A DNA stretch of 64,000 bases from a virus. The first letter of the stretch is position 1; each line of letters starts with the position of its first letter. The notes beneath the pieces are model-generated. The model was not told where the DNA came from, searched no databases, and saw only the letters and a program-made list of their open reading frames with translations. The position numbers and the translations under genes are program-made. The DNA lies in UHGV virus genome UHGV-0112180, one strand, 5' to 3'. Shown here one piece after another: positions 43,660 to 61,784 of this stretch.

Positions 43660-46600
43660 TTAGGCCGCATCGGCGATTATTTTACGCAGTTCATCTACCG
43701 AGTAACGCGTAGATACCATCCATGCAGGACGGTCAAAGTTCACATCAGCAACCGGGTTTGCTTCAAAATTCCAGAAACGCCCGCCAATCTTCTTAATCGC
43801 GTCTTTGGCGTTCCGTATTGTCGAGGAACCTGGCTGGTCGGCAATGAGATAAACCGCGCCAACGTCTTCGCTGACGCTCCACCAGCGCCCGCGAACACGC
43901 GCCTTAGCGCGAATCGGCTTATCATTAACCACAATGATATAGTCATCATTCGCCGCTTCATCAGCTCTTGCTTCAGCCACTGCCGCCTGCTCTTCTCTTT
44001 TGCTTTCAGCCTGCTCAAGCCTTTTCGCGATCTCTGATTCAGTGGCCCCGCCGTTTTTCAGCGATACATAGTCCTGCCACGTTGCCGATTTGAGCGCATC
44101 CGGCAACTCATTCACATAGTCGCCGTCTTTCAACTCACGGGCGCGACGGGTAGCCATTTCTACCAGGCGATTAACAGAAACAGCATCAGCAAAATCGTCC
44201 TTACTAATGTGTTTTTCATCAAATGCATTGATGACAGCCCCAACCTTAATCCACTGTGCTGCCGGTGATTCCAAGGGGTTATCAGCCTGAACAATGGCGA
44301 GTTTCGCTCCATCTACCCCATTATTCGCCAGCTGTTCCAATGCCGCCCATCCATCTGCATCACTGAGTGATTTATATTGCTCAAACAATGCATCGCGCCA
44401 GGCCACCAGCGCAGAACGTGTTTTTTCGATCTTCGCCTTAATTTTCGCGATCTTGACCTGATTAAACATCCGTTCAATATCATCGATATTGCTAAAGGCT
44501 TTCATCCTGCCCTGGAATAAACGGTATGCCAGCACGGTCCTCCAGAATGATTCCAGACCTTCTCCGGACGGTTTACGGAACAAGCTAAGAATATCTTCAG
44601 AAGTGACTTTATTAAGCGAACGACCTGACAGACCACGCCCAGCCATCCAGTTTTCGAACTCCTGGGCAACATCATCCATCGTTGCTTGTGCGCCCCATGC
44701 CTGCATTCCCTGGATGTAATCATACCCATACAATGCCTGGAGGAATCCCTCTCCGTCCACGATATTCAGCGGATTATCACTGGCTTGTATTTTTGCCACT
44801 TCACGCTTCAGCGCCTCATTGTTGATATCAGGGTAAATCCACTGCTCTGGTGCAATATCCGATGTACGCCCGATTTTCTGTCCTATCATGCCATCATAGG
44901 TCGATGACAGCGCGATCTGACCATCATCTGTGCGATAAGCCCAGTATTTAATAGCTGACCCACCGCCCCATGCATTACCAGGTTTACCAGCAATAACATT
45001 CATTACCCCATTGCGAATAGCATCATAGAACTGATCGCGAGTAAGTATTGTTGATAGCTGGTGGCACTGAACACCACGCGCAGCCGTTGCGCGCGATTCA
45101 GCTACCCCCTCTTCAAAAGTTACCGCTTCAATCACAGAGTCAAACGGCAATGTAACGATTGACCCCGGTGCTCGAGCGTAACGACTTGCTCTATCCAGCC
45201 AGGCGATACGGCAGAGGTATTGTGCTTTTTCACCGTCAATTTTTTCCACCCGGACAATCGCTGTTGTTTCGCGATCATCAATGACTGCACGGTAATAACT
45301 ACCTTTATGCAACAGGATATTCTTGTCAGTGCGCATATATTCCTGTGGGTTCTGAATAACATCGATACTGATATCCAGCACACCAGACTTAATAGCGCGC
45401 TCCACATCACCACGAGAGCGTTTCATTATGGTATCCGCGTCTTTTGCCCTGGTGATCGCAAACCGCAGCACCCGCGCACGTTTTCTGTAGCTACTCAACT
45501 GCTCAAGCGCGTATTTTTGCCCATTCCTGTTCGTACCCGCTTTTATCAGGTCGTCAAGATTGCGCTGGTAATACTCTATCTGTTCCATCGCGCTTTTCAG
45601 TTCTGTCTCCATCATGCCGATATCTTTTCCGGCGGCGTTTGCCGCTTTCAGGTAGATATCGAGAGCATTGTTGGCCTCGCGCTGTGCTTTCAGTTTCAGA
45701 CGTTCTTCACGCTCTTGCGCCTGGCGAGCCATGATTGCGCGGCGTTCTTCCGGGTTTGCCGCCAGCATAATGGCGCGTTCATCAGCATCATCCGCATCAC
45801 CATTGGCGATCTCTGACATGTCGGAGGTCATCACCATCTTGATCCAATCTTTCTTACGTTTCAGCGTATCCAGACGGAAGTCGTCGAATGTGCCTTTGCC
45901 ACAATAGTAGTGAACATTGACCTTCTCTTGCGGTGAACCTACGCGCGCACCGCGCCCATTTCGTTGGTCGATACTGGCTGGTGTCCAGGGTAGTGTCAGG
46001 TGGTGGATATCGGTTGTCCCGATGTGCAGGTTAATACCTACTTCAGCCTTCTTGTTACAGATTATGATACGCGTGCGACCTTCGTTATAGTCGGCGGCAA
46101 TACCTTCCATGCCCTCAAGGCCAGCATCATTTTTAGCTGAGAGATAATCCTCATATTGGGCAAGTTTGCTGTAGTAGGTTTCCCATGCCCCTTCTTTGTA
46201 TTCACCGTTTTTGTTTGGAGTAGGTTCGGTCGGCTTATTCACCTTCTTCAGCTTGATGCCGCCAGCCTGGCTAACTGTCGTTGCATTGATAATGCCAATC
46301 TCCTGCTCCGGCATTTGCAGTGCACTGGCGATAATACGGCGCAGCTTCTGGTGCTGGGCTTTTTCATCAATAAAGACGATCTGCTTACCGTTCTTCAGAC
46401 CTTCACGAAGATTTTCGATCAGCGCGGCATACTTCGGCGGGATGGGGTGCGATACCTGCTGCATATCAATACCGGCAGCCGCAATGGCCTTAAGTATTTC
46501 AGCTTCCAGTTCAATGCTGGCACGTATTTCAACATGCGTCGGATGTTCACTAAAAGCGGTCTTCACTACCTTGCTGGTACGCGTACTGACCAGCCCGCCA

Positions 46601-49600
46601 GCGCCGTCTTCCTCGGCCTCATCAACATCATCTGCCACTTTACCGCCAGCTACTTTTGGCAAGGCATCAGCAATAGCTTTTACCTGGTCTGCAAGCTCAA
46701 CGGGGAACTGGAATGTAATCGCACTGGCATACAGATCCGGGTCTATAGCAACCTTGTCCATGTCACGGATGATGGAGAAGATGAAATCATCCGGTTTGTC
46801 GTTAGTGATATGCCCGTTTTCATCGACTGTCAGCTCATCATTGCGACTTAACTCCTGAGCACGCTTACGAAGCTCTTCATAAGCAGTCTCCTGCTCCCCT
46901 GTCATCGGGATCTGCAAGGTGTTCTCAATGATGTCGGGAATTTTAACCGTTGCTCCGACATCTGCAGCAGTCTTCAGAGTGGTCCAACGATGGAAAATAC
47001 CACGCAGGCCGTCAAGGTTCTGGAAGCCCACCAGCCCCTGCTTCTCTTCCACTTCCCCGGAAATTTTCTGGACCTGAACTGTGGCTGTTTTGCCAAACAC
47101 ACGAACGAAATCATCAGGCGTAATGATGCCCATGCGCATCCACTCTTCCTGCGGAATGACAGTAGACAGCATGTTGAAGGCATCAATCGGACTGTTCACC
47201 AGCGGAGTTGCCGTCAGCATGACTACACCACGCCCGTTGTTGCGTTTCATCATGTACGCAGCTTTTACAGCCATGTCGCGGGCCATCTTGGATACTGCCG
47301 GGTTAGGCAAATATGCCAGTTGTCCCGCTTCACGCCCGGCATTAAAGGAGTTGCGGTAGTTATGCCCCTCGTCGGCAATCACGCTATCGAAGTTCATATC
47401 CTCAAAGTACGGGATATTCTGCTTCTTCGTTGTACCGGTATTCGCGGCCTGATCCTTAATCTTGTTCTTCTTCTGCGCATCACGGTGTTTACCGGACGCC
47501 AGGTCAAGACGCCCCATTTCCACAGCATTAAAGACAGCTTGCTGTGAGTTCTCCTCGATGGTTTTTTCTCGTAGCGGGATAGACGCGAATTGTTCTTTTG
47601 TCATGATGACCGTTCGCCAATTTGACGACGGGATCATGTTCATGCGCTGAACGATAACGGCGCTGGCGGACTCTTTCACAACATTTCTGGTAAGAGGCTG
47701 CCCGTTACTGTCGAGGCGTGGTTCGCCATTTTCATCAAGCACCGGCGCGGTCAGAATATTTCCGCTGTCATCACGAACTTCATCCAAACCGATAAACATC
47801 ATATTGGCGAAGGCATCAGCACTGTAGAAACTCTGTGCCTCGTGATACCAGTTCTGATAAACCGCCTTCGGAACAACAATACACGTGCGTTTAGTGCGAC
47901 CTGTTTCGAAGTTATACGCCTCAAGCGCAAGCGCGGTCGTGGTTTTACCCAGCCCGGTACCAAATCCCATGATGCCGCGCCCATCTTCTGACAAGCGCCG
48001 AACTTCTTCATTCTGATAAGTAAGAGGAATGCGCTTTCCACTAAGCCCTTCCAGGCCAAGCGGTGCGTCAGAATGCGTGAACGGAATGAAACCATTGAAT
48101 GCGTCGTTATACTCGCGGGCTATCTGATCAGCCTGCGGGTGAGTGCGTAACCAGTCGTTAAAACTAACTTCCAGTTGAGCAATTTTATCCAGGTACTCGT
48201 TAGCGTTCTGCCCACGCGGTTTAACACCGTTCAGGTAGTTTTCTAACTGGTTCAGGAAGCCGTCTTTATTGTTGGCCTTCTTGAACTCATTCCCGTTTTT
48301 GCCGTTTACGGTTCGTAGCTGATAGCCGGTAAATACCCCGTCCTTACCTTCGTAATCGTCCGGAGATACCAGAATGCCATCGACGACCTTCAGATCAGGT
48401 TCAGTGTACTTAAACTCGTCATAGCCCTGCTCTGCCAGGAACTCTTTTATCAAGCGGCGATCCAGCCAGCGGGCATTCAGATTAACGGTGACTTTATTTA
48501 GTGGCGTGAAAATACGTTTCTCTTCGATTTTCGCCAACTGACGCTCAAAGTTCGCTTTCTGCTCACCTGTTGACGCATCACGCCAGCCCATCAGCAATGC
48601 TGTTTTGGTTGCAATATCGCCGCTGGTGGCGCGGTCCATCGGCAGCAGGCAGCCATACCCATCAATAGCGATATCATCAAATTTCGCCAGGTATTCAAGG
48701 GCCGCGTCGTCGTCCTCTGGCAGTTCACCAGCAAACGCCTCACGAAAGTCTCCCAGCGTTATAGGATTAAGGGCTACATCACTGAAAAGATGTGCTATCA
48801 CTTGTTCAGGACGTGTAAAGTCAATACCGGCAGCACCATCCGTTACATCAAGTCGCCCTGCCAGAAGGTCAGAAGTGGAACCATCCTGTTTCACATTGCC
48901 AGTGAACGTCATCCAGTTTTTAGCGCCAGCTTCAGCAAGCCCATTCAGCTTAATGGCGTGCGGTGGCCCATACTTCGCAACTTCTGCTGCCGCCAGGCGG
49001 GATGCATCTGCCAGTTTGTCATCAACGTTCACACCCAGGTTACGCAAATCAAGTGCCTTGTTGATCAACTGACCTATCAGCGCACCGCGCATAACGCGCT
49101 CCCTGTCTTTTTCTCGCTGCTTGCCAGCAAAGCGAATCATTGCTGCCACTTCATCACTGACAACCGATGGATAGTCGGACGCGATCGCCGATATCTGGTC
49201 CCATGACAAAGCCAGAATCCCGTTTGTTGACTGGAACGCGATCTGCAGATCGCCAAACGTCGAAACACCATATCGACTTACATCAAGCGCGGAGGATTTG
49301 GTTGTCGTGTCCTTAACCCATTTCAGACCATCAAACTCATGCCAGATACCGCCTACAAGGCGTTTATCGCCCACTTTCGCGCCCTGCCATGCCTGAGTAG
49401 TTACGCCGAGCAAATCCCAATTGATGCGACTATCAAAGCGACGAGATAGCGCGGTTTTCATCGACTCATTGGATACACGACCGTCTTTTTTCACCACCAG
49501 GGTATTGCGGAAGCTGGTACGTTCCATGTCGCCGTAAACAAATCGCTTCCCTTCGGTTGTAAACCATTTTCCTTTGAGGAAGGTATCCCAAAGGACGTTT

Positions 49601-50496
49601 GCCGATTTGAGTGTTGAATCATCCGTGTCGGGGATCATCTCCAGGAAGGTTTCCGGGTGTTTACGCAATACCCATACGTCCACCACGGTATCTGTACCGG
49701 ATTCGCTGAACGTACCGGAAGGCATACGATGTGCGCCCAAAAATTCCGCTTTACGGCTGACTTTATCGCGCAATTTTTTATATTTCGCACCATCGGTCAT
49801 GCCATTTGGCACCACCAATACGATAAGCCCACCAGGCTTAACCTTGTCGATCGTGCGCAGCACAAAGTAATTGCCAACGTTCTTCTCGTTTGCATATGCC
49901 GGATCAAGCCCGGCAACGCCGGAACGCCCTTCACCAAACGGTACGTTACCAACAGCGTGGTCATACATTGCATCTTTCGCCGCCAGCGCCTCAAACGCCC
50001 CGATATTCACATCGTCTTCCGGGTGCAAAAGCTGGTTTATTCGACCAGAAATCGGAGACAGTTCGGCGCTGGTCATTATCATGCCCTGCCGTTTTGTCTC
50101 CTGGAAAATACCTGTGCCCGCTGATGGTTCCAGTACGTGCCCGCCATCAATACCGTAGTCAGCAAACAGATCCCATATACCTTCAGCCATAAACTGTGGC
50201 GTGTAGTATTCGTATTGGCTGCCCTCACCATCTGTCAGGCCGCCTTCACCGGTATACCCAGCAAGAATCTGACGTTGTTCGTCAGTTAATTTCGCCCCAT
50301 CGAAGCCGGGCGGAAGGGAATTAAGAAGATTTACTGCGGCATTGTTTGCTGCCCGGCGTGTTTTCTGAATACTGACGCCATCGGCTTTCCTGACGCCAAA
50401 GGTCGCAACAGCACGTAATTTATGCAACCGACTAACAATTTCAATCAGTTCGCCTAAGCTGGAGGCTTCACTGATTGAATGAAGTAGTTTGTCCAA
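43660..50496 (-). CDS. darB: DarB-like giant methyltransferase-helicase (P1 defence-against-restriction type)
   Basis: 2278 aa; N-terminal N6-adenine MTase motifs (VLEPSAGTGIF, GNVPFG); DExH helicase motifs (GTGLGKT, VIADEGHNYRN); size matches P1 DarB. Confidence 0.8.
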   Translation of the reverse strand: MDKLLHSISEASSLGELIEIVSRLHKLRAVATFGVRKADGVSIQKTRRAANNAAVNLLNSLPPGFDGAKLTDEQRQILAGYTGEGGLTDGEGSQYEYYTPQFMAEGIWDLFADYGIDGGHVLEPSAGTGIFQETKRQGMIMTSAELSPISGRINQLLHPEDDVNIGAFEALAAKDAMYDHAVGNVPFGEGRSGVAGLDPAYANEKNVGNYFVLRTIDKVKPGGLIVLVVPNGMTDGAKYKKLRDKVSRKAEFLGAHRMPSGTFSESGTDTVVDVWVLRKHPETFLEMIPDTDDSTLKSANVLWDTFLKGKWFTTEGKRFVYGDMERTSFRNTLVVKKDGRVSNESMKTALSRRFDSRINWDLLGVTTQAWQGAKVGDKRLVGGIWHEFDGLKWVKDTTTKSSALDVSRYGVSTFGDLQIAFQSTNGILALSWDQISAIASDYPSVVSDEVAAMIRFAGKQREKDRERVMRGALIGQLINKALDLRNLGVNVDDKLADASRLAAAEVAKYGPPHAIKLNGLAEAGAKNWMTFTGNVKQDGSTSDLLAGRLDVTDGAAGIDFTRPEQVIAHLFSDVALNPITLGDFREAFAGELPEDDDAALEYLAKFDDIAIDGYGCLLPMDRATSGDIATKTALLMGWRDASTGEQKANFERQLAKIEEKRIFTPLNKVTVNLNARWLDRRLIKEFLAEQGYDEFKYTEPDLKVVDGILVSPDDYEGKDGVFTGYQLRTVNGKNGNEFKKANNKDGFLNQLENYLNGVKPRGQNANEYLDKIAQLEVSFNDWLRTHPQADQIAREYNDAFNGFIPFTHSDAPLGLEGLSGKRIPLTYQNEEVRRLSEDGRGIMGFGTGLGKTTTALALEAYNFETGRTKRTCIVVPKAVYQNWYHEAQSFYSADAFANMMFIGLDEVRDDSGNILTAPVLDENGEPRLDSNGQPLTRNVVKESASAVIVQRMNMIPSSNWRTVIMTKEQFASIPLREKTIEENSQQAVFNAVEMGRLDLASGKHRDAQKKNKIKDQAANTGTTKKQNIPYFEDMNFDSVIADEGHNYRNSFNAGREAGQLAYLPNPAVSKMARDMAVKAAYMMKRNNGRGVVMLTATPLVNSPIDAFNMLSTVIPQEEWMRMGIITPDDFVRVFGKTATVQVQKISGEVEEKQGLVGFQNLDGLRGIFHRWTTLKTAADVGATVKIPDIIENTLQIPMTGEQETAYEELRKRAQELSRNDELTVDENGHITNDKPDDFIFSIIRDMDKVAIDPDLYASAITFQFPVELADQVKAIADALPKVAGGKVADDVDEAEEDGAGGLVSTRTSKVVKTAFSEHPTHVEIRASIELEAEILKAIAAAGIDMQQVSHPIPPKYAALIENLREGLKNGKQIVFIDEKAQHQKLRRIIASALQMPEQEIGIINATTVSQAGGIKLKKVNKPTEPTPNKNGEYKEGAWETYYSKLAQYEDYLSAKNDAGLEGMEGIAADYNEGRTRIIICNKKAEVGINLHIGTTDIHHLTLPWTPASIDQRNGRGARVGSPQEKVNVHYYCGKGTFDDFRLDTLKRKKDWIKMVMTSDMSEIANGDADDADERAIMLAANPEERRAIMARQAQEREERLKLKAQREANNALDIYLKAANAAGKDIGMMETELKSAMEQIEYYQRNLDDLIKAGTNRNGQKYALEQLSSYRKRARVLRFAITRAKDADTIMKRSRGDVERAIKSGVLDISIDVIQNPQEYMRTDKNILLHKGSYYRAVIDDRETTAIVRVEKIDGEKAQYLCRIAWLDRASRYARAPGSIVTLPFDSVIEAVTFEEGVAESRATAARGVQCHQLSTILTRDQFYDAIRNGVMNVIAGKPGNAWGGGSAIKYWAYRTDDGQIALSSTYDGMIGQKIGRTSDIAPEQWIYPDINNEALKREVAKIQASDNPLNIVDGEGFLQALYGYDYIQGMQAWGAQATMDDVAQEFENWMAGRGLSGRSLNKVTSEDILSLFRKPSGEGLESFWRTVLAYRLFQGRMKAFSNIDDIERMFNQVKIAKIKAKIEKTRSALVAWRDALFEQYKSLSDADGWAALEQLANNGVDGAKLAIVQADNPLESPAAQWIKVGAVINAFDEKHISKDDFADAVSVNRLVEMATRRARELKDGDYVNELPDALKSATWQDYVSLKNGGATESEIAKRLEQAESKREEQAAVAEARADEAANDDYIIVVNDKPIRAKARVRGRWWSVSEDVGAVYLIADQPGSSTIRNAKDAIKKIGGRFWNFEANPVADVNFDRPAWMVSTRYSVDELRKIIADAA

Positions 50497-50647: not shown

Positions 50648-51133
50648 ATGGCAAACATTGAACCTCGCTGGCTAATTGAAGCCCGTAAGCACATTGGCCT
50701 GACTGAAATAAAAGGCGCTAAACACAACCCTGAAATCGTTCAGTTCTGGCGCGACATCAAGCGCGGCGGAATTAAAGACGATGAAACGCCGTGGTGCGCA
50801 GCATTTGTCGGTGCAATGCTGGAACGTGTAGGCATCCGCTCAACAAGATTTGAGTCGGCAAAATCCTATCTGGATTGGGGCGAAAAATTAGATACACCGG
50901 CATACGGATGTATCGTTGTATTTACCCGCGTAGGCGGTGGGCACGTAGGCTTCGTTGTCGGACGCCGTGCCAATGGCGATCTGCTTGTCCTGGGTGGGAA
51001 CCAGGGGGATGCTGTTAATATTCGCGCATTCCCAACATCAAGAGTGTCTGGCTATCGCTGGCCTGCTGGCGAACCACGCAATACCGCTCTGTTACCAGTC
51101 GGAGACGCAGCAACCTCAACTAATGAGGCATGA
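50648..51133 (+). CDS. CHAP/NlpC-P60-like peptidoglycan hydrolase family protein (tentative)
   Basis: Putative catalytic Cys (ETPWCAAFVG) and His (GGGHVGFVVG) in a 161-aa protein. Confidence 0.5.
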   Translation: MANIEPRWLIEARKHIGLTEIKGAKHNPEIVQFWRDIKRGGIKDDETPWCAAFVGAMLERVGIRSTRFESAKSYLDWGEKLDTPAYGCIVVFTRVGGGHVGFVVGRRANGDLLVLGGNQGDAVNIRAFPTSRVSGYRWPAGEPRNTALLPVGDAATSTNEA

Positions 51134-51136
51134 AAA

Positions 51137-51165: not shown

Positions 51166-51366
51166 TCAAGTCACGATCCAATCATTACCGACTATATCAG
51201 CCGTCGATAAATCAACTTCCCGGATCTGGAGTCCATTAATACAAAACCATCCGGTAGTAGAGTAATTATCAGGCCAGGCCCATACACCAACACTCCATAC
51301 TTTACGGCGGCACACTTCAGCCTGTCCTTCCCTGATTTTTTTTACCGCCTGCATGATGTCCATCAC
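51166..51366 (-). CDS. Small protein downstream of ant (copy 2)
   Basis: 66-aa ORF overlapping the ant stop; homologous segment is fused in copy 1. Confidence 0.35.
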   Translation of the reverse strand: MMDIMQAVKKIREGQAEVCRRKVWSVGVWAWPDNYSTTGWFCINGLQIREVDLSTADIVGNDWIVT

Positions 51367-52070
51367 TCACCTCCCCAACCGATCACCTGGAATTGCCCCA
51401 TTTTGGGGTGATACCAGCGTTTTCCTCGGTGTTCAGCCTCCGACATCATCCGGTTAAAAGCATTCATGAAGGGAGATAAGGCCACGATTGAACGACGCGA
51501 CAATACCCCCTCTGGAGTTAAAAACTCATGCGTATCTGTGGGGATCCGGTAAGCGTTGACCAGGTTGCGGCATTTGGCTTCGGTCAGGCCGCATTTTGCC
51601 GCCAGCTGGCGGTAGCCAATGTAACCTTCCGGCATGTTGCCCTTCTTGATTTGCTCGACGGTTTCTACCACTTGGCTAACCTTTGACTCAACAACATGAA
51701 GCCGCTTTTGCTGCTGAACTGCATTTGCAGCCATTGCGGCGATCATCTCTATTTCGGTCAACGGCTGGCGTGCTTGTTCTTCCAGTTCGCGCCAGCGGTC
51801 CACCAGCCGGGCGGTGAATTCGGGAGAGAGCTGCGCAACGACAATAATGCTGTCTCGTTTGCCTTGCTCGCCTTCGAAGACGTAAGCCTCGACACTACGG
51901 CGTAGTCCTAAGTTATTGATTTTTTCGAAAACCTGCAATGCAGGAAGTTGAATAACTCCAGATTTAGCCAGGCGCTCTATTGATATTTTTACGTTATCTG
52001 GACGACTTCCCACCAGCTCCGCGATCTCAATGCTGGTCATTGATGGCTTTTCAAGAATGCAGATATCCAT
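51363..52070 (-). CDS. Rha-type phage regulatory protein / antirepressor-like (copy 2, intact)
   Basis: MTSIEIAELVGSRPDNVKISIERLAKSGVI and FEGEQGKRDSIIVVAQLSPEFTARLVDRWRELE; single 235-aa frame. Confidence 0.55.
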   Translation of the reverse strand: MDICILEKPSMTSIEIAELVGSRPDNVKISIERLAKSGVIQLPALQVFEKINNLGLRRSVEAYVFEGEQGKRDSIIVVAQLSPEFTARLVDRWRELEEQARQPLTEIEMIAAMAANAVQQQKRLHVVESKVSQVVETVEQIKKGNMPEGYIGYRQLAAKCGLTEAKCRNLVNAYRIPTDTHEFLTPEGVLSRRSIVALSPFMNAFNRMMSEAEHRGKRWYHPKMGQFQVIGWGGE

Positions 52071-52707: not shown

Positions 52708-53670
52708 TCATCCCCTAAAGCCCGCCGGGATTGACCAATCCTCACGGTCAAATTCAGACCGATAGCCACGCTGTTTCATCAGGTCAAAGGCTTCACCAAT
52801 GGTTGCACACCCCAGGGAGCCAGAATAATCCATTGAGAAATCCAGGGCACTGGATTGTTTAGGCTTATTCACTGCGGTAGCGGCACTACGTATCCATGCA
52901 AATTTTTTTGCCAGCTTTTCAGCGGTACGATACAGAGCCTGCCGTTTTGCGTGCCCCTCGTCTGAACGACGCTTTGCAGCTCTCGCTTTTGCCGCCGCCA
53001 GGCAGTGGTTGGTATGTTCTTCCCTGATTACTGGTTTTTTATCCAGCACCCCATTATCCGCTTGAGAACTATCTGCTGGTGAAGCCTTTGGCTGAACCGC
53101 GCATGATCTTTCTCTTCTTTTTGCTATAGAGTGACTCTTATTTTCTATTGGCTGTTCATTTTGAACATGGGGGGACTTGTTCAATTTGAACAGGGGGTTC
53201 CCAGTTTCAAAAAAATAACGAACCTTTGAAATCAACTGCTTAACCAGTTTTGTGGCGTTGGCAAATTTGATGCCCTGCTTACCCCCTATCTCCATTGCTA
53301 CATGAATGAAGTGGAGAAATTGTGTCGTAAACCGATATACGTTACACACCTGGGCATTGTTATTCGCTACCTGATGTTGCTTAACAAGCATTCCGCACTT
53401 CGTCGCTTCAGCAAATGCCCGGCGCACAGTAGAAATACTGCGTCCTGTAATCTCGGACATATCAGCATATGAGCGACGGATCATGTATTCATCGGTAGAC
53501 CCTGCCAGGTTGGCGAACTCGGCAATAATGGCGCTATGTGAAGGGGAAAGAAGACCGCTATGACGAGCAAAAAAACTCAACTGATGACCTTTGATTTTTT
53601 TGTGGTATTCAGTGTTGTTTTTATACTCAGAAGTGTTGAAAGTTACTGAAACTGAATTTAAAATACTCAC
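52708..53670 (-). CDS. HTH-containing protein, possibly a RepL-type replication or regulatory protein
   Basis: HTH-like MSEITGRSISTVRRAFAEATKCGMLV; position upstream of the immI-like module. Confidence 0.3.
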   Translation of the reverse strand: MSILNSVSVTFNTSEYKNNTEYHKKIKGHQLSFFARHSGLLSPSHSAIIAEFANLAGSTDEYMIRRSYADMSEITGRSISTVRRAFAEATKCGMLVKQHQVANNNAQVCNVYRFTTQFLHFIHVAMEIGGKQGIKFANATKLVKQLISKVRYFFETGNPLFKLNKSPHVQNEQPIENKSHSIAKRRERSCAVQPKASPADSSQADNGVLDKKPVIREEHTNHCLAAAKARAAKRRSDEGHAKRQALYRTAEKLAKKFAWIRSAATAVNKPKQSSALDFSMDYSGSLGCATIGEAFDLMKQRGYRSEFDREDWSIPAGFRG

Positions 53671-53870
53671 CAGATAGTTCCGTGAAAAAATCTATCTACC
53701 GTATAAATCTATGGCAGTGGATTTATACACCCAAAAAGCCGCTTCTCAGCGGCTTTTGCTTTTTTGGCAGTCGCTACCGGAGCAGTGACCGCGATCCTAC
53801 TCGATCCCATCCACCAGGATCAACAGTGTATATAAATACACTATGTTAGAAATTTAACTTAACAAGGCAA

Positions 53871-54869
53871 TCACCCCCTTCTAGAAACGAAGAGTAACGG
53901 GGTGGTGTTTTTGTTCTCCTTCGGTGATAACTCTGGTTCTTTCTTGCCTGATACCGGTAAGCCATAAGTAGCATTTGCCCCAAGAGATTCAAGCATCGCA
54001 GCCACTATGCGGGCATCATCTTCAGACTGCATACGGCAGAGCGCCCGGCGCTGTTCTGCGCTGATAAAAACAGGCATTTCCTGGATAGCGTCACGCAAAA
54101 TCCGGCGGCATTGCTTTGCATTTTCCCCTTGGCTTTCCATCATCGCTGTTTGAGCGCGCAGCTTATCTCGAAGCTGTATGTTTTCCACTTCAAGGAGCAT
54201 CAATTCTGATTCCAGGGCTTCACGATGTGCAGATTCGAGCATGGCTTGCTGATTTTTCATTGCTGAAAAGTGGTGAACCAGATCCGTAGCTGCGTTATCG
54301 GTAAAACCTTGTTCGATAAGTGCTGCATGAATAGCCGCATCGCGCTCTTCTACTGATTCAAGCATCAGGCTTTTCTTGTCGAGGCTGATATAGTTAGGCA
54401 CAGTTACGTAATCAAAGCCGTGGAAAGACTTTACCAGGGATACCGATGAATCTGGACCAGATGTAGCCCACGACCAACCACCAGCACCAGAATTAATCAT
54501 GCCCTGAACAATACGCCCGGTGTCTGTATCCAGTATTTCCTGCGTATGAGTAACAATGCCGTTGTCGTCAATCGAAATGTCGATAGTCCTGTTTGACGGC
54601 ACGTTCTCCAATACAACAGGCTTCCCATCTACCATCACAACAGAGACTTCCGGCAAGTTCAGGCTTTTCGTTTTGTTATAGTGCATCGCCCGGCGACCAT
54701 GACCGTAATAACCATACATCTCACCCAGCGCGATACGCTCTTTTGTTTCTGGCGAGTTGAATGTGTCTCGTACCGACTGAATGACGTAATTTCGGTTGTT
54801 CTGCGGTGTGTGTTTGCGGATTTTCTCTACCAGGGAGAAGCGATCCGTAACAGTATTCAGTGATTGCAT
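53871..54869 (-). CDS. Head morphogenesis protein (possible prohead protease or scaffold; P1 pro position)
   Basis: 332 aa immediately downstream of the putative portal gene; assignment by size and position only. Confidence 0.3.
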   Translation of the reverse strand: MQSLNTVTDRFSLVEKIRKHTPQNNRNYVIQSVRDTFNSPETKERIALGEMYGYYGHGRRAMHYNKTKSLNLPEVSVVMVDGKPVVLENVPSNRTIDISIDDNGIVTHTQEILDTDTGRIVQGMINSGAGGWSWATSGPDSSVSLVKSFHGFDYVTVPNYISLDKKSLMLESVEERDAAIHAALIEQGFTDNAATDLVHHFSAMKNQQAMLESAHREALESELMLLEVENIQLRDKLRAQTAMMESQGENAKQCRRILRDAIQEMPVFISAEQRRALCRMQSEDDARIVAAMLESLGANATYGLPVSGKKEPELSPKENKNTTPLLFVSRRG

Positions 54870-54882
54870 TATTTCCCTCCGG

Positions 54883-56565
54883 TTAATTGCTCATCACAAA
54901 TTTTGCAAAGTTTATTAACTGTTCTGGCGTCCAGTTTTCCGGATCGTCACCGGACGACAACGGCGCGGATTCGTACATACCATGCTCGCTGTTTTGCTCT
55001 GATTCATTCGCCTTAAACTCTTTGATCATGGTGTTGAGAGTGTCATCGTCGATGTGCAACTGCTCGGTGAACAGATAACGCATAAACGCGTCACTACCAG
55101 CCAGTTTCGGGTTGTTCTGGATCTGGTCCATAATTTGGGAGATGACAGCAACAAAGTTGGCGCGTGCATCCAGTTCTCGGTTTTCCTCTTCCTGGATAGC
55201 AGTGTTCATTGAGTTGAATTGCACGTCATAAGGGCGGTTTGTTTCGGTGTAAACCTTGCCGTATTTATAAGCGAGGTGAATGTCCAGAAGCCGATAAATA
55301 GTTCGCTGGGCGGCCTGTCTGATCCAGTTCGCACGCAATGCAGCCTGGATAGCAGTTTGCTGCCAGCCGCCTTCTCCAAGCCCTCCGCTCATCTGATCAG
55401 CCCAGCCAAGCATTGTTGCGTCAATGCCGAGGCTTGCAGCAAGCTGCCGGAGGTGAAACATAACGTCTTCGATACCACTGATATCTGCGGGTATGGATTG
55501 CGTATCAATGGTGATGCCGTTCTTCCCGTCTCCCATAACAGGTATCAGATGGTTAAGCACAGTCGGAATAGCGTTAGCATTAATCGACCTTTGCGCCACC
55601 AGGTCACTATGACGCTTCAATGCCTGGCTGACGCCACGCGTATAGTTCGCCGCATTAACCGGGTCCAGTGTGTTCGTCGTAAGAGCAATCAGGCGGTCAA
55701 TTTTGGCTGCATTATTTCGCGTTGATTTCAGCGCGGCGAGCGAAGCACATAAATTAAGGTAAGGTTCATAGCTGTATTCCAGGAATGAAGTTCCGTAATT
55801 CTGCGTCTCCATTAACGGCTTATCAGCCTGATCACTTAACAGTGAGTACCCTTTTGTGCCGTAGCTAACCGGAATAACTTTATGCTGTGGCGTCCAATAG
55901 GGATTTTTCATGGAAACCAGATTCCACGGTTCGGTTATTACTCTGCGCAAACTATGCGTATCCAGGATGTAATCACCACTGAATCCAACCAGCTGGCTAC
56001 CGCGATAAAATTCCTGGACGAAATGTGGCAGAGTGTAATAACTGGACTCAATGCCTGTTATCCCCCTGCCCTGTTCAGCATAAGGTCGGACATAAGACAC
56101 CCCAAAGATCGCCATGATCATGGCCCATGAAGGAAGTCCGTCATTAATCATCGCCCCCAAATCAGCGGTTAACTCTTCACATCTACTTACTGCCTCGGCA
56201 TCGGAACCATCCTTTGGCGAAAGGATGAATGCCTGTCCGGTTTTTTTTGAAGGCGCAAGCGCATGTGCAATGTGAATGTTTAAAGCCGTCGAGATAGTCG
56301 GGCTTTTAGCCATCGTTTCCAGGATGTTGTACTTTTGCAGGCGCTCGCCGGGCAGTTCAGCGGATAAAGAAATTGAATCTGCCTCACTCGTCATGCCATC
56401 GCTATTGCTCCCCAGGATGCCTGGACGTAAAGCAGACAGGCCGGAACGAGCAACGACACTATGTCCGCTCGTAAAAACGACCGGATCGGCGGGCGTAACA
56501 TCACCACCGTTGAAGGCTTTCTTCAATGCTGACAGAAAGCCTTTATTTTTGTCTTTCGTTGCCAT
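54883..56565 (-). CDS. Putative portal protein (P1 prt position)
   Basis: 560 aa; size and position only. Confidence 0.35.
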   Translation of the reverse strand: MATKDKNKGFLSALKKAFNGGDVTPADPVVFTSGHSVVARSGLSALRPGILGSNSDGMTSEADSISLSAELPGERLQKYNILETMAKSPTISTALNIHIAHALAPSKKTGQAFILSPKDGSDAEAVSRCEELTADLGAMINDGLPSWAMIMAIFGVSYVRPYAEQGRGITGIESSYYTLPHFVQEFYRGSQLVGFSGDYILDTHSLRRVITEPWNLVSMKNPYWTPQHKVIPVSYGTKGYSLLSDQADKPLMETQNYGTSFLEYSYEPYLNLCASLAALKSTRNNAAKIDRLIALTTNTLDPVNAANYTRGVSQALKRHSDLVAQRSINANAIPTVLNHLIPVMGDGKNGITIDTQSIPADISGIEDVMFHLRQLAASLGIDATMLGWADQMSGGLGEGGWQQTAIQAALRANWIRQAAQRTIYRLLDIHLAYKYGKVYTETNRPYDVQFNSMNTAIQEEENRELDARANFVAVISQIMDQIQNNPKLAGSDAFMRYLFTEQLHIDDDTLNTMIKEFKANESEQNSEHGMYESAPLSSGDDPENWTPEQLINFAKFVMSN

Positions 56566-56629
56566 GAATCACCGCAAATTGTTTCCAGTTTTGCGGCAGC
56601 ATAATCAGTATGTGATTTCAGCGGTTGGT

Positions 56630-58027
56630 TTAGTTTTCCGTACGGCAATTATTTAGATCTGTAGAATTTTCAAACATAGCAAAGTTCAGACCTTTCCCTT
56701 CGCCAAATTCACCCTCAATTTCATCAGATACAGCAGACAAAATACGACGCAGATCAACATCGCCACCGCCGAACATATCGCCCAATGCCTGTTGTTTATG
56801 AGTCAGCTCGTCGTTGATTTTTTGCGCCATTTTTTTGAATGCTGTCCCCATACGCTTCGCACTGCGATTATTTGCTACGATGAATAGCGCCAATGCCTCA
56901 GCTTCTGGTGTACTGTCGCCGAATAACCCCCTTTGGGCGATCACTTCTTCAACGGCCTGACCGTTGTCTTTGGCTTCACGTACAAGATTAATTGCTTCCT
57001 GGAGTGCTGCTATCGCCTGTGTATCCAGGCCATTAACCTGCTCTATACCGTCCACTAAGCCTGTTACTGCGTCATGGTGAGCGTCGCCAGACAGCGACTG
57101 CATTTGCGCAAAATCGCTGGCTGCCGTATTTAATGCGGTCAGGATATTACGCATTTCCGGATCTGGCTCTTCCGACACCAGCCGAACAAGCCTTTCATCC
57201 TTGTACGCTTTGGCAAAAATTGCATTCTGGATGCGATCGATAAGCTGTTTCGTGGGACGCCCATCGGCAGTAAGCAAGCCTGCCGTCGCTGTATCGCCAA
57301 TTTCGCGCAAAAACGCACGAATAAACGCATCATTGGACCGCGCCAGCAGATTTCCATCATCTGAAGGATTAAATAGCGCCATGACGCTCTCAGTGAGAAA
57401 TTGCGCATCCGCATACGCTTTTTCACTTGCTGCCATCTCTTGCAGATCGCTAATGTTTGAATCGCGGGCAAATTGAGCGCGGTCTACATCTGTGAGTCTT
57501 TCTCGCACCAGTACGGGCATAGACATTTGCGAAATTTCGTCAGGATTCAGACCAAACTCTTTCGCATGGTCGATCAGGTACTGGCGATACTCATCCGCCT
57601 GTCCTTGCTCATAGGCACGCCAGATACCCATACTCCTTCCGTTGCCGGATTCAACAACGTTGTCCGGACCAACTATCGGCGCTCCGTGGCTGCTCATACC
57701 GGAATCCGTTAATTGTGCCGGGCGTAAATTGGAGGCAATACGGTTAACCTGGAGTTTGCTGGATAGCCGGGTACGATCTCGTGGTTGGAGTTCTTCCGGG
57801 AAGGCCGGGTTAATCGTACCGTCAAGGTTGTTCGAAATGATCAGACTGCTGGCATCAACGACCTTAAAAGCCGTCTTTACCTCTGCACCTTTGCTGGTGA
57901 CTACGTAGCTACTTCGCCCCAGGCGTGTTTCTTTCCTCTCTAATGAAGAAACCAGAGCAATGACGCTGTTAATATCTGCGGCCCCGGAAAGCGCAGAAGT
58001 AACTGATTTGTTCAAAATACACTCCAA
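56630..58027 (-). CDS. Hypothetical protein (dar-operon region)
   Basis: 465-aa ORF. Confidence 0.3.
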   Translation of the reverse strand: MECILNKSVTSALSGAADINSVIALVSSLERKETRLGRSSYVVTSKGAEVKTAFKVVDASSLIISNNLDGTINPAFPEELQPRDRTRLSSKLQVNRIASNLRPAQLTDSGMSSHGAPIVGPDNVVESGNGRSMGIWRAYEQGQADEYRQYLIDHAKEFGLNPDEISQMSMPVLVRERLTDVDRAQFARDSNISDLQEMAASEKAYADAQFLTESVMALFNPSDDGNLLARSNDAFIRAFLREIGDTATAGLLTADGRPTKQLIDRIQNAIFAKAYKDERLVRLVSEEPDPEMRNILTALNTAASDFAQMQSLSGDAHHDAVTGLVDGIEQVNGLDTQAIAALQEAINLVREAKDNGQAVEEVIAQRGLFGDSTPEAEALALFIVANNRSAKRMGTAFKKMAQKINDELTHKQQALGDMFGGGDVDLRRILSAVSDEIEGEFGEGKGLNFAMFENSTDLNNCRTEN

Positions 58028-58109
58028 CTATAGAGAAAGCTGTGAGTGTAAAAAGTGTGTGATTTATGTGAGAACAGATAAGTGAAAGGGGCATTTCAGC
58101 CCCTTTTGA

Positions 58110-58478
58110 TTACCCGGCATAACCGTTAGCTTTCACCCAGCTTATGGTCTGCTCTTTAGCCTGCTCCAACGTAAGGAACTCGCCAACATAGTTTGAGATC
58201 CCACGCAGCGCATCAATAAATTCCATTTGTGTGGACTTTGTGAAGACACCGCCCAGGAAGTCAGTCACTATCTTAGGGACTTCATCTACAACAGGATCAG
58301 TCTGTTGTTGCGGTTCCGCTGCCGGTTGCGCGGCAGTCCCCAGGCCCAATTTCAGCATCACATCAACAATCTGCTTACCAATGGTGACGCGTTGCAATAC
58401 TGGCGCAGTTTTCTGCGCCTGCATTAGATCTGATAGCTCTTTACCTAATTTCAGGCGGTCTAAAACAGAGATGGTCAT
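58110..58478 (-). CDS. Hypothetical protein (dar-operon region, DdrA-like size)
   Basis: 122-aa ORF. Confidence 0.3.
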   Translation of the reverse strand: MTISVLDRLKLGKELSDLMQAQKTAPVLQRVTIGKQIVDVMLKLGLGTAAQPAAEPQQQTDPVVDEVPKIVTDFLGGVFTKSTQMEFIDALRGISNYVGEFLTLEQAKEQTISWVKANGYAG

Positions 58479-60415
58479 TAAGCACCTCCCTGCTGAATTT
58501 CAGCCAGAATGTTGATCAGGTAGTCAACTGCTGCACCAACAGTGGCTTCGTTCTCGTCGTATCGACCTGCACTGATTAGAGCGTTTGCTGCTTCCTGCAC
58601 ATGATCAAGTTCAGCACTAATGACCGTCAGATCGCGGGATGTAAACTGCTCCGGCACGGATTTCAGGTACTCCAGTGCTTTATCTGCCTCCTGATCAGCT
58701 TCATTTGCTGATTCACCCGTTTCTTCTGGCTCCTGTTCTGGTGCTGGTTGTGGTTGTGGTTGTGGTTGTGATTCTGGCTCAACCATATGCTCTGTTTTTA
58801 CTTCGCTTGAATGATTTTGAAGGGCGTTATACACGTCCATAATGAAAAGGTTCTCCCCATCACTAAGTGGATACGCCACGTTTGGAAACGCTTTGCGGAA
58901 AAGAATTTTCACTTGCGCCTTGAATGTTTTCAGGTCACTGCCAAACAGGTCCACATAGCCATCAATATGTTTCGACATGCTGGACGCAACCAATTGGTCT
59001 GCAAAATCTTTCAGCTCATCTTCATCAGGAAGATAGAGCAACTCGTACTGGCTGACTTCTTCATCTGTCAGTTTACGGTCATACGTAATGATACCGTGAC
59101 GAGCATATTCGTAATACTGATCAGCCTGGTCAGGACGATCAAGCACGGCTTTATTTCCATCCGGAACAGCACCAACACCAGCCGGGCGAGATTGAAGTGC
59201 ATAGTGGTATTTACCTACATCTTGGCTCTCTGGTTGTAATACTGGGTTCGTTTCGGGGTCTGTCTGTGGTGGTTCGGAGTCTTCCAGCTGGCCTGGTAAC
59301 ACATCAACTTTATATTTATCTGCGTTATGCTCTCGGTAGGCTTTAAGTAATTTGGTTGCAGCATCTGCCAAACTGCCTCCTTTGACAGCACTGGCATCAA
59401 TACTGAATTTACCTTCAGGTGCTACTATCGTAACGAAATTATCACTGCCGGACGTGACATAATTAACTTCAGCTCCATTATCCAGCACTGTTTTTCCGTC
59501 AATGGCAAGATTATGTTTTACATGTCGCAGCTGGTCACTAAACGCTCGTTCTTTCGTTTTTTCACCTTTAGCAGACAACAATTTATCGCGTTTTGCTTGT
59601 AATTCCTCGTTGATGGCTTTCTGGGCATCAAGTTTTTTTTGCATCTCCGTAAGAGCAGCACGCTTTTCAGTCAGCCCACGTTGCGCAACTTCCACCTGAT
59701 CAATCATTATTGACCGTTCTTCTGCCAGTTTATCTGCTTCATTGAGATAACTCTCAATATCTGCCTTCATTTTGTCCTGGCGCTCTTTTGCTTTCTTAAA
59801 TTTTTCGCTGTTACGCTCAATCAAATTAGATAGCGCCTGGCATACCTGGCTTAAAGAAACATCTCTCCCACCAATCGGGGCGACAACGTGAGTTACGTTA
59901 CGTTTATTAAGTAAAAACTGAAATGCAACAAGCTCGTCGTTACTCTTTATTTTTGCCCCGTCAGCTGTTGGAGAGTGGAAAATTATGCTTGTACTCTGCC
60001 CGTCAGTAAGCGGTATCTGCGCGGTCAAAACAGGGATATTAGCTACCCGACGTACACGACCGATAATCGCACCACCAATACAATTACGTCCATTTTCATC
60101 GGTCCCAGCTTCATCAGTCCCTGCCATAATATTCGTACCATTCAGGCCACGATTCAGCGCACGGACGAAAGCTCGCATTGTTTGAGCTAACCGAATTCTG
60201 GTTGTAGTTATGGACTCAAACATAGCTTCGTCAGACACAACCAGAATTTCATTGCCCATATAGGCAAGCTCAATATCTTCTAAGGTCGCCGCCTCAAAAA
60301 TCAGGTCATCTTCGCTTAATTCTTCTGAAGACCAGCGACTTGGCATATAGCCGGGGATCGTATCAGCAAAAGTAGACTGAATATTAATTCGTAAAGGATT
60401 GTTAATCATGCTCAT
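58478..60415 (-). CDS. Large coiled-coil protein with acidic QPQPQP repeat (P1 darA position)
   Basis: About 645 aa; start set at MSMINNPL with GGAGG upstream; central coiled coil. Confidence 0.35.
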   Translation of the reverse strand: MSMINNPLRINIQSTFADTIPGYMPSRWSSEELSEDDLIFEAATLEDIELAYMGNEILVVSDEAMFESITTTRIRLAQTMRAFVRALNRGLNGTNIMAGTDEAGTDENGRNCIGGAIIGRVRRVANIPVLTAQIPLTDGQSTSIIFHSPTADGAKIKSNDELVAFQFLLNKRNVTHVVAPIGGRDVSLSQVCQALSNLIERNSEKFKKAKERQDKMKADIESYLNEADKLAEERSIMIDQVEVAQRGLTEKRAALTEMQKKLDAQKAINEELQAKRDKLLSAKGEKTKERAFSDQLRHVKHNLAIDGKTVLDNGAEVNYVTSGSDNFVTIVAPEGKFSIDASAVKGGSLADAATKLLKAYREHNADKYKVDVLPGQLEDSEPPQTDPETNPVLQPESQDVGKYHYALQSRPAGVGAVPDGNKAVLDRPDQADQYYEYARHGIITYDRKLTDEEVSQYELLYLPDEDELKDFADQLVASSMSKHIDGYVDLFGSDLKTFKAQVKILFRKAFPNVAYPLSDGENLFIMDVYNALQNHSSEVKTEHMVEPESQPQPQPQPAPEQEPEETGESANEADQEADKALEYLKSVPEQFTSRDLTVISAELDHVQEAANALISAGRYDENEATVGAAVDYLINILAEIQQGGA

Positions 60416-61037
60416 CCTCCAGGCGCGCGATTTCTTCTTTAAGAGCACGTGTCTTAGCTACTTCCTGAGACAAGGCAGCTTTAACATTACCCGTATCTTG
60501 CATTACTTTGTCTGACTTGCTCTGGAGTTTAGACAGTTTGTCGTTAGCATTAGCGATATCTTCACGGAGTGCATCACGTGATTCTTTCGCTTCAGCTAAT
60601 TTCTGAGCGTTAGATTTAACTCCCTGCCGCTTCTTATTTCCGTCATCAATATTTTTTGCTGCACGAGCAAGTTTTCGAGCTAATGACTTCTGGAAAGAAG
60701 TTGCTCCACGATTAAATAAAGCCGCAAGAGATTGCCCCAAAGCCGACATTGTTTTTACTGGCTTGAACGGTACTGTTTTACCATTCAGTTTGATCCCAGA
60801 TATATCACCGGTATCGTTAACCTGAACTTCCATTGTCTGTTCATCAATACCAATAAGGGTAAACGTGCGCGTCATGATCCCATCTTTCTTCCTGCCATTA
60901 CTTGCAGGGATCACCCTCGCTATCTTGTAACCACCTTTGCTGATTTCTTTGACGAGTTTTGCCAGCCCCTTTTCGTTTAACTCATCATAATTAAGAAGAA
61001 CATAATTATTCTTATTTGACATCCCAGTCTCCTTCAC
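60402..61037 (-). CDS. Hypothetical protein (P1 hdf position)
   Basis: 211-aa ORF with K-rich coiled-coil C-terminus. Confidence 0.3.
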   Translation of the reverse strand: MKETGMSNKNNYVLLNYDELNEKGLAKLVKEISKGGYKIARVIPASNGRKKDGIMTRTFTLIGIDEQTMEVQVNDTGDISGIKLNGKTVPFKPVKTMSALGQSLAALFNRGATSFQKSLARKLARAAKNIDDGNKKRQGVKSNAQKLAEAKESRDALREDIANANDKLSKLQSKSDKVMQDTGNVKAALSQEVAKTRALKEEIARLEDEHD

Positions 61038-61458
61038 GCTTTTCGATCGTAAACTGGCGCTCTATGCAGTCATTGATAGGGAAAATGCGATAAAGCGGAT
61101 TCAGTCGGCAGTTACCGTTAGTCAATGTGACTTTCAGATCCCACTTCGTTGGCTCAAGATATTTCGTATCGATGAGCAAATACTCTTCTCTCTCACCGCG
61201 TTTTGAGGCGTCAACTGGTCGCGTTTTCCCTGAAATAACCACAGATGGATTTTTCAGGTCTTGCAACCAATATTCGATTTGAGCATTGCTGACCCAGCTT
61301 CGCTTAACACGTAGCGAAACAGGAAATGCTATAGCTGATTCTTTCACTACAGCGTCACCAATACTCAAAATCTCAACACTCTTGCGACGAAAAATGAAAC
61401 GGTCAATGATGGCAACAAATGCCATGATAAAAATGAAATAATTTCCAAAGTTACCCAT
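61012..61458 (-). CDS. Membrane-anchored protein, putative antiholin (P1 LydB position and size)
   Basis: 148 aa with N-terminal hydrophobic anchor; directly downstream of the holin-like gene. Confidence 0.35.
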   Translation of the reverse strand: MGNFGNYFIFIMAFVAIIDRFIFRRKSVEILSIGDAVVKESAIAFPVSLRVKRSWVSNAQIEYWLQDLKNPSVVISGKTRPVDASKRGEREEYLLIDTKYLEPTKWDLKVTLTNGNCRLNPLYRIFPINDCIERQFTIEKREGDWDVK

Positions 61459-61784
61459 TATTTCTCTCCACCTTTTCCCCCATTCGCTATTACGCTTAAG
61501 AGATTCAAGACGTTACTAGCTCTGGACTTCAAGCCCTGTAAAATTTCACTACCGTTGTTACTGGCAATCAGAACAACGCAGAAAATGATGCCTTCAGGCC
61601 ATTCTTGGCTAACCGCCACCCCATACCCCGCAAGCCCGGCTGTTACCGCAGTAAACAATTCACTCGCAAGATTGAGCAGGGACGCAGAAATGCGCCCGTC
61701 TCTAACTCCGAGAAGGAATACGCCGGTTCCACTTAGTAGGGATGTTATGACTACTACAGCCAGATTTTCATAATCTGCAAACAT
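61458..61784 (-). CDS. Holin-like protein (multi-pass membrane, 108 aa; P1 LydA position and size)
   Basis: Three hydrophobic segments with charged C-terminal tail KGGEK. Confidence 0.45.
   Translation of the reverse strand: MFADYENLAVVVITSLLSGTGVFLLGVRDGRISASLLNLASELFTAVTAGLAGYGVAVSQEWPEGIIFCVVLIASNNGSEILQGLKSRASNVLNLLSVIANGGKGGEK

Follow-up and report, generated by a model that had tools for sequence, protein, structure and literature searches.

The Dar, head-maturation, lysis and immI/repL region of virus genome UHGV-0112180: kinship with phage D6, a short ddrB allele and the variable ddrB-prt slot

The window analysed here is a stretch of 64,000 nucleotides of the UHGV virus genome UHGV-0112180, and the region under study covers its positions 43660-61784. 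The region was found to contain genes for antirestriction (Dar), head and lysis proteins of the phage P1 type, together with an immI-type immunity module and a repL homolog (Table 1). All six Dar components (Hdf, DarA, DdrA, DdrB, DarB and Ulx) were found to be encoded (BLASTP against P1, E = 2e-21 to 0), with ulx located just beyond the left edge of the region, and the lydA gene was followed by the presence of the cin gene on the plus strand. BLASTP gave a P1 homolog for each of the Dar, head and lysis genes. The six Dar proteins and LydB each had an assignment in Pfam, PHROG or PDB as well; for LydA, Prt and Pro such family support was weak or absent at the sequence level. The gene orf17 was the sole one without any assignment, no match being found for it in Pfam or PADLOC. 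An earlier reading of the letters of this DNA (the sequence-only reading) had named a DarB-like giant protein, a portal, a protease, a dar block and a holin/antiholin pair, and all of these were found on the minus strand where it had placed them.

Table 1. Genes and other features in and beside the region, in window coordinates (aa, amino acids; bp, base pairs)
Feature	Coordinates	Strand	Description	Support
ulx	43189..43623	-	antirestriction accessory	49% identity to P1 Ulx, 94% to D6 orf14; PHROG 1629 'Ulx-like anti-restriction' 7.5e-59
darB	43660..50496	-	2278 aa, N6-methylase and SNF2/helicase giant virion protein	99% identity to D6 orf15
orf16	50648..51133	+	CHAP/TIGR02594 peptidoglycan hydrolase	Pfam CHAP 2.7e-7; PHROG endolysin and tail-lysozyme families
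orf17	51166..51363	-	65 aa	98% identity to D6 orf17; PHROG 7385 'unknown function'
ant	51363..52070	-	Rha/Roi-type antirepressor	Pfam HTH_24 and Phage_pRha; PHROG 63 'anti-repressor Ant' 2.7e-47
icd	52070..52294	-	cell-division inhibitor	61% identity to P1 Icd, 99% to D6 orf19
C4 antisense RNA	52342..52427	-	immI-type	Rfam RF01695, 68.8 bits versus gathering score 45
a1/b1 element	52495..52547	-	target element of C4	Rfam RF03163, 54.4 bits versus gathering score 46.7
repL homolog	52708..53670	-	320 aa, lytic replication initiator	29% identity to P1 RepL, E = 4e-27; 98% to D6 orf20; PHROG 2418
terminator-like hairpin	53734..53757	.	G+C-rich, 10-bp stem, A and T runs either side	between pro and repL
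pro	53871..54869	-	prohead protease	43% identity to P1 Pro
prt	54883..56565	-	portal protein	50% identity to P1 Prt, 99.6% to D6 orf22; weak Pfam Portal_T4
filler of cargo slot	56619..56668	-	50 bp, DdrB codon ~450 to prt leader	breakpoints versus D6, pB2C_96 and pMUB-MIN14-1
ddrB, short form	56630..58015	-	461 aa, ParB/Srx-like domain and helical region	Pfam ddrB-ParB; 64% identity to P1 DdrB residues 2-442
hairpin	58085..58106	-	just 3′ of ddrA stop, start of 94-bp ddrA-ddrB gap	sequence AAAGGGGC-TGAAAT-GCCCCTTT
ddrA	58110..58478	-		33% identity to P1 DdrA, E = 2e-21; PHROG 1855 'DdrA-like anti-restriction' 4.8e-50
darA	58478..60409	-	643 aa, internal head and antirestriction protein	39% identity to P1 DarA, E = 7e-139
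hdf	60402..61022	-		40% identity to P1 Hdf; Pfam DarA_N 8e-18; PDB 9ukm_H Hdf 3.1e-25
lydB	61012..61458	-	holin antagonist	Pfam LydB PF16084 1.1e-24; 34% identity to P1 LydB
lydA	61458..61784	-	holin	43% identity to P1 LydA, E = 1e-22; weak Phage_holin_3_3 (PF16083), below threshold

The region was found to be 100% identical to the Escherichia coli plasmid pF16EC0589-1 (CP088384.1), a circular, non-mobilizable plasmid of 91,937 bp from a blood isolate, and it showed 97.5% nucleotide identity to Escherichia phage D6 (records MF356679 and NC_050154) over 100% of its length. At least 80% of the region was covered by 101 plasmids of PLSDB. The alignment to D6 consisted of two collinear blocks, broken only by the replacement of 1110 bp by 50 bp, and each gene of the region was found to have a D6 counterpart with 91-100% protein identity. 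From ulx to cin, the genes of the window and of D6 were collinear and equally oriented. Both D6 records contained the identical gene order and carried the notes 'similar to P1 gene' for darB, pro, prt, ddrB, ddrA, darA, hdf, lydB and lydA. The dar block was found to differ more from D6, with 94% nucleotide identity versus 98% for the rest of the region. Positions 43189-61784 of the window very probably represent the standard D6-type Dar, head-maturation, lysis and immI/repL region of a P1-family plasmid prophage of about 92 kb from E. coli. The gene arrangement is already known, as it has been deposited and annotated for D6 and described in the literature as D6-like (PMC6799933). In that description, D6-like plasmids were reported to contain two c4/icd regions and a peptidoglycan hydrolase beside immI.

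The P1 order is ulx-darB (minus strand), prt-pro (plus), lydE-lydD-lyz (minus), ssb, isaA, IS1 and isaB, followed by hxr-ddrB-ddrA-darA-hdf-lydB-lydA-lydC (minus) and cin (plus). The window was found to keep the lydA-lydB-hdf-darA-ddrA-ddrB order and the position of ulx beside darB, whereas its prt-pro pair was inverted and adjoined ddrB instead of darB, lying downstream of the dar operon in the equal direction. The genes lydE, lydD, lyz, ssb, isaA, IS1, isaB and hxr of P1 were absent from the darB-ddrB interval of the window, which carries the CHAP hydrolase gene, the c4-icd-ant module and repL where P1 has lysis genes, ssb and IS1. The tblastn searches of the window gave no P1 Lyz, LydC, LydD, LydE, Ssb, Hxr, KilA or Ant1. 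An isaA homolog was present elsewhere in the window at 27142-27873 (48% identity to P1), and a simB homolog at 10796-11083 (49% identity to P1). From the gene order, a single inversion of the interval from darB to hxr/ddrB, together with replaced contents, could explain the difference from P1, and this account is supported by the plasmid pB2C_96, in which two small genes separate prt from hxr-ddrB. The placing of prt and pro apart from darB, unlike P1, had been recognised correctly from the letters, whereas the 'HTH (helix-turn-helix) protein' named among the separating genes at 52708-53670 was found to be the RepL homolog, annotated in D6 as 'lytic replication protein'.

Two proteins of 465 and 656 aa at the darA/ddrB positions had been regarded as unrecognisable. 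They were found to be the short-form DdrB and DarA, both recognised by BLASTP, Pfam, PHROGs and PDB searches and both annotated in D6 as 'similar to P1 gene ddrB / darA'. The two lengths are those of the longest open reading frames; with the start codons as annotated in the identical plasmid, the proteins have 461 and 643 aa. DarA was found to contain both Pfam domains (DarA_N, 4.5e-40, and DarA_C, 9.1e-19), and its residues 35-642 were collinear with residues 38-636 of the PDB chain 9ukm_I, 'Defense against restriction protein A', which is the solved P1 DarA chain (9.2e-122). Residues 1-1935 of DarB were collinear with P1 DarB at 43.5% identity, with 34-63% identity per 200-residue segment in the methylase and helicase parts. 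The final ~680 residues of the protein showed only ~25% identity to P1. The Pfam domains N6_Mtase, SNF2-rel_dom, ResIII and Helicase_C were found in DarB, with the Walker A motif GLGKT at residue 848.

The sequence-only reading had proposed a modular reshuffling with diverged candidates for injected antirestriction proteins. A novel rearrangement of this element, with two new and highly diverged injected antirestriction proteins, would agree with a gene order unlike that of P1, and relative to P1 the reshuffling is real. As a novelty it is scarcely credible, since the order is that of D6 and is common to at least 101 plasmids, and since both proteins belong to Pfam families named for DarA and DdrB, with DarA matching the solved P1 chain. 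Synteny with D6 and the assignment of functions were found to be essentially complete, the exceptions being the absence of orf23 and orf24 of D6 and the unassigned orf17. With an arrangement equal to that of D6 and both proteins in named families, the original finding adds no knowledge.

The mechanism of the Dar proteins is drawn from P1 (PMC12810830, PMC9024508). By homology with P1, Hdf and DarA would attach to the inner face of the capsid and bring in DdrA, DdrB, Ulx and DarB, and the Dar proteins would be packaged, ejected with the DNA and shield it in cis against type I restriction. Prt would form the portal and Pro would act as a gp21-like prohead protease, LydA and LydB would time lysis, the C4 antisense RNA would repress icd and ant, and RepL would drive lytic replication. 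Some points weigh against the P1-family reading of the region and its working. Packaging, ejection and protection are carried over by analogy from P1 across Dar, head and lysis proteins of only 33-64% identity. The P1 late-promoter box (AAGTGACTT-N3-5-YANNNT, with at most one substitution) had a single match in the window, at 9522, outside the region, and the P1 C1 operator (ATTGCTCTAATAAATTT, allowing up to 3 mismatches) gave no match in the window.

The ddrB gene of the window was found to encode 461 aa versus 995 for P1 DdrB. The N-terminal ddrB-ParB domain was present, with the ParB-type invariant residues QPRDR and ESGNGR kept, whereas the HExxH metallopeptidase motif was absent from the short protein, which ends at residue 461, and no match to residues 443-995 of P1 DdrB was found anywhere in the window. 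The sole synteny difference from D6 was located at the ddrB-prt junction, where the window lacks the 1110-bp cassette of D6 containing orf23 and orf24 (DUF4145) and contains 50 bp (56619-56668) in its place, giving DdrB a 12-aa tail different from that in D6. The orf23 of D6 (L001 16991-17323) encodes 110 aa of no family, and orf24 (L001 17368-17925) showed a weak DUF4145 match (Pfam E = 7.6e-4, below the gathering score). The D6 cassette is not callable as a defence system, because PADLOC gave no matches for orf23 and orf24; orf13, orf17 and the short DdrB likewise had no PADLOC matches. The 50-bp filler resembled neither the D6 nor the pB2C_96 cassette. Its origin by duplication and divergence of the prt leader was rejected (local alignment score 14 versus a shuffle mean of 12.3, p = 0.24).

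The contents of this slot were surveyed in 60 plasmids sampled from 120 matching ones. The compact form of the window was found in 45 of them, the DUF4145 cassette in 5, IS200/IS605 in 3 and HicA/HicB in 1, followed by 2 with other inserts, 1 cut at a contig end and 3 in which similarity stopped at the junction. Of 15 IMG/VR contigs, 10 were compact, 2 of the D6 type and 3 of the full-length type. The window carries the commonest slot allele, in which DdrB is reduced to its N-terminal module of ~450 aa. In pB2C_96, one of the three junction-stop plasmids, DdrB was found to contain 1013 aa, with the first 450 residues 96% identical to the window protein; it was collinear with P1 DdrB at full length (44% identity), contained a zincin HEIGH at residue 890 and had an hxr homolog after it, which is also the P1 arrangement. 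A 1013-aa DdrB and hxr were also found between identical breakpoints in the IMG/VR contigs L011 and L022, and the cut contig L012 contained the matching C-terminal end of DdrB and hxr. The plasmid of Escherichia marmotae, another junction-stop case, contained no ddrB, and its interval from the ddrA hairpin to the prt leader was occupied by a JukA homolog (PADLOC 5e-71), an HTH regulator and a transposase; similarity to this plasmid resumes at window position 58085. The alleles keeping ddrB were all found to break after the codons for ..FAMFE, and all alleles to break just before AATCACATACTGATTATGC upstream of prt, and both breakpoints hold even in a lineage only 78-87% identical. The slot contents were 50 bp, orf23 with DUF4145, the ddrB C-terminal half with hxr and XRE, HicA/HicB, JukA with HTH and transposase, and IS200/IS605 (loci L001, L007, L008 and L009), and three unrelated inserts had exactly equal end points.

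The ratio of nonsynonymous to synonymous substitution (dN/dS) over the N-terminal 450 codons of ddrB was found to be 0.04-0.07 in pairwise comparisons, with values of 0.074 (window versus D6) and 0.055 (window versus MIN14, at dS = 1.2) between short alleles. Among D6-like elements, the dS of ddrB (0.19-1.43) was far above that of prt (0.05-0.09) and hdf (0.007-0.02), which indicates that ddrB alleles have been exchanged between lineages; from these values the alleles appear to be much older than their flanks or to have been imported from other lineages. The synonymous divergence of ddrB amounts to 5-50 times that of its neighbours prt and hdf. In a large protein collection, the ~450-aa module was common as a stand-alone protein of 437-485 aa on 85-95-kb contigs of Pantoea, Leclercia, Vibrio and Photobacterium, and it was also found fused to InPase, LPD3 or ART domains. 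The occurrence of the DdrB-ParB domain alone or in fusions agrees with what Iyer et al. 2017 (PMC5512222) described as polyvalent proteins, with partners such as the zincin metallopeptidase (P1), InPase (Vibrio), LPD3 and ART. In the window the module stands alone. Its boundary to the variable part bears a prohead-protease-type motif that suggests processing by Pro rather than by a peptidase of DdrB itself.

Judging by its substitution pattern, the short ddrB is a functional allele under purifying selection and not a product of decay. A decaying remnant after a 3′ deletion, that is, a leftover open reading frame without function, would account for the loss of residues ~451-1013 of the full-length allele, the HExxH zincin motif included, and for one related plasmid without ddrB altogether, and it would agree with the finding that ddrB is non-essential for P1 plaque formation (PMC10695390). 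Such a remnant is nevertheless very improbable, as dN/dS is 0.04-0.07 even between independent short alleles at dS = 1.2, the open reading frame is intact in most of the ~120 plasmids, stand-alone modules of equal length are common in other genera, and the invariant residues are retained. In D6-like elements, the ddrB allele was found to be full-length, short or absent, these states being interchangeable at a slot of fixed boundaries that also carries toxin-antitoxin and defence genes, and this variation makes DdrB the most dispensable and most exchanged of the Dar components.

The conserved DdrB module was found to end at (L/M)F(E) across the family. Many stand-alone modules stop directly after ..LF or ..MF, and others run as ..FES.. 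into unrelated extensions. The mature N-terminus of the P1 gp23 capsid protein was determined by Edman degradation as SVAAEM, after the loss of 120 residues (PMC9024508). It is the only experimentally determined maturation site of P1, all other sites being read from alignment. The site (arrow, known or candidate cleavage bond) is KAMLE↓SVAAEM in P1 gp23 and KAMFE↓SVAQSM in D6 gp23. The model of P1 DarA from cryo-electron microscopy starts at residue 70 (PMC12810830), and at the aligned propeptide position P1 DarA was found to contain TDLLE(68)↓AISS and window DarA EAMFE(65)↓SITT. The DdrB boundary reads GGLFE(441)↓SVSG in P1 and FAMFE(449)↓SVSG in the full-length D6-like protein. From the single P1 cleavage verified by Edman degradation, a consensus A-(M/L)-(L/F)-E↓S can be drawn, which is present again at the propeptide of DarA, at the DdrB boundary and in Pro.

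Among the 19 proteins of the region, the motif [LM][FL]E[SA] was found once in DarA, three times in Pro and in no others, a count of 4 versus 0.97 expected (P = 0.018). In P1 it was found in DarA, in DdrB and four times in Pro. Hdf, for which no processing is reported, lacks the motif, as do DarB, Prt, Ulx and DdrA. The three copies of the window Pro are all MLES, at residues 169-172, 210-213 and 292-295, and the four copies of P1 Pro consist of one MLES, two (L/M)FES and one LLES. The alignment of the Pro family contained invariant His57 and Ser133 and a nearly invariant His108, followed by the presence of four conserved MxES motifs in the C-terminal half, which would fit autoprocessing of this helical half.

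The AlphaFold2 model of Pro was found by Foldseek to match T4 gp21 (5jbl chains) in its top three matches, followed by herpesvirus assemblins. The 5jbl matches were weak, with a probability of 0.89-0.97, E = 0.035-0.066 and TM on target 0.44-0.47, and none had E ≤ 0.001. Searches of PDB and Pfam with the Pro sequence alone gave only chance-level matches. The T4 cleavage rule is Leu/Ile-x-Glu, and SPN3US gp245 is related to gp21. The protease of the giant phage SPN3US cleaves behind A-x-E and favours Ser at P1′ (PMC10052503), and the supplement of PMC9024508 contains a 99.44% HHpred match to T4 gp21 in the row directly above DdrB, assigned to Pro by table order. The candidate sites would be cleaved after Glu with Ser next, like A-x-E↓S in SPN3US, and contain Met or Leu at P3, to be compared with the Leu/Ile of T4.

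Because the motif recurs in gp23, DarA, DdrB and Pro, and because of the weak gp21-like fold match and the precedents of Glu-specific proteases, it is on balance probable that Pro cuts DdrB at the module boundary. If the boundary is cut by Pro, the short allele would correspond approximately to the mature N-terminal product released from full-length DdrB, and the 12-aa tail would be dispensable. Cleavage at this place is opposed by several observations. P1 DdrB was reported to be processed to ~76 kDa, about 700 aa, and autoprocessing by its C-terminal metallopeptidase was proposed (Iyer 2017, PMC5512222). Cleavage at residue 441 would yield pieces of ~49 and ~61 kDa, neither of them ~76 kDa. 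In the window DdrB the motif is followed by Asn and not by Ser/Ala, so that the tail may stay, the best Foldseek E-value between Pro and gp21 (0.035) is weak, and the motif is short.

The breakpoint at codon ~450 might instead be a mere domain boundary, with DdrB maturing autocatalytically and the resemblance to the capsid site arising by coincidence. The length of the motif (only 4-5 residues), the ~76-kDa mature P1 DdrB at odds with a cut at residue 441, the zincin HExxH conserved in full-length alleles and the fact that homologous recombination in conserved flanks gives identical apparent boundaries are all in line with such a coincidence. We regard it as unlikely, given that A-M-(L/F)-E↓S is shared with the gp23 site verified by Edman degradation and with the propeptide boundary of DarA, that the motif also persists at the end of the module in InPase fusions, where a peptidase is lacking, and that it is confined to proteins known or expected to be processed.

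Beyond cleavage by Pro, we propose tentatively, and with less belief than doubt, that the DdrB N-terminal module with (L/M)(F/L)E↓S may serve as a cleavable capsid-delivery carrier. The slot, reaching from the scissile bond to the prt leader, would then be a plug-in site where in-frame C-terminal effectors (zincin, InPase) or free cargo (HicAB, JukA, the DUF4145 cassette) are swapped between lineages, DdrB would be matured by Pro and not by its own metallopeptidase, and the short allele would be an empty carrier. The putative Pro consensus offers a directly testable alternative to the published hypothesis of DdrB autoprocessing, and it might help to load foreign proteins into capsids of the P1 type. 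Both the slot and the consensus concern the P1 family generally and not this window in particular.

In the immunity module, the C4 RNA and the a/b target element were found upstream of icd, both with Rfam scores above gathering. The module thus shares the C4 RNA, the a1/b1 element and icd with immI of P1 (c4, icd, ant1/2, then kilA-repL), whereas it lacks kilA, contains repL upstream and not downstream of the module, and encodes a Rha/Roi-type antirepressor related to lambdoid roi instead of Ant1/2. The ant gene gave no BLAST match to P1 Ant1, and Ant1/Ant2 were not found downstream of icd; window positions 51779-52041 within ant showed ~90% nucleotide identity to roi of Shiga toxin (Stx) phages. 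A run of 237 bp (52274-52510) was found to be 100% identical to P1, and allowing two mismatches extends it to 263 bp. The C4 RNA lies entirely within the run, together with the leader and the first codons of icd, and the a1/b1 element contained 7 mismatches to P1 in 53 nucleotides. The 237-bp run implies a recent exchange, and probably the C4 specificity of P1. The run stands out in an element whose other proteins are mostly 29-64% identical to P1, with Cin (97%) as the exception.

A second immI-type module was found in the window, with a C4 RNA at 13661-13748 on the minus strand (RF01695, 77.1 bits), an 'isrK' Rfam match at 13793-13871 (RF01394, 61.3 bits), an icd-like open reading frame at about 13409-13585 with 63% identity to P1 Icd, and a Rha/KilA-type ant. 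It occupies the P1-syntenic position beside simB and pmgF and corresponds to orf82/orf83 of D6. Its C4 sequence differs from that of the copy at 52.3 kb, and the two circuits are therefore probably of different specificity. The inserted immunity module of the sequence-only reading is accordingly real, with C4, its targets, icd and ant, whereas its description was incomplete, as the module is one of two in the window and is joined to repL.

The interval upstream of repL (53671-53870) was found to contain a near-perfect palindrome, AGTGTATTTATATACACT, with one central mismatch, and a second pair, TGTATAAAT...ATTTATAC. These palindromes are regarded as candidate operators because the window contains no match to the operator consensus of P1 C1. 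A D6-type late box was not retained, AACAAACTGACTAAGT being unique, and ACTGAYTA was found 7 times versus 2.9 expected, with only the copies upstream of lydA and prt being intergenic and these not aligned with a -10 element.

The orf16 protein was found to contain the Cys50 and His99 motifs and to lack an N-terminal membrane segment. It is likely, from its sequence, to be a soluble CHAP-type hydrolase acting as the endolysin with LydA/LydB, since no P1 Lyz homolog was found in the window by tblastn or annotated in D6 8283-85300. A cluster of four tRNA genes was found at window positions 37216-39226 on the minus strand (Rfam tRNA, 42-75 bits), as likewise reported for D6-like plasmids.

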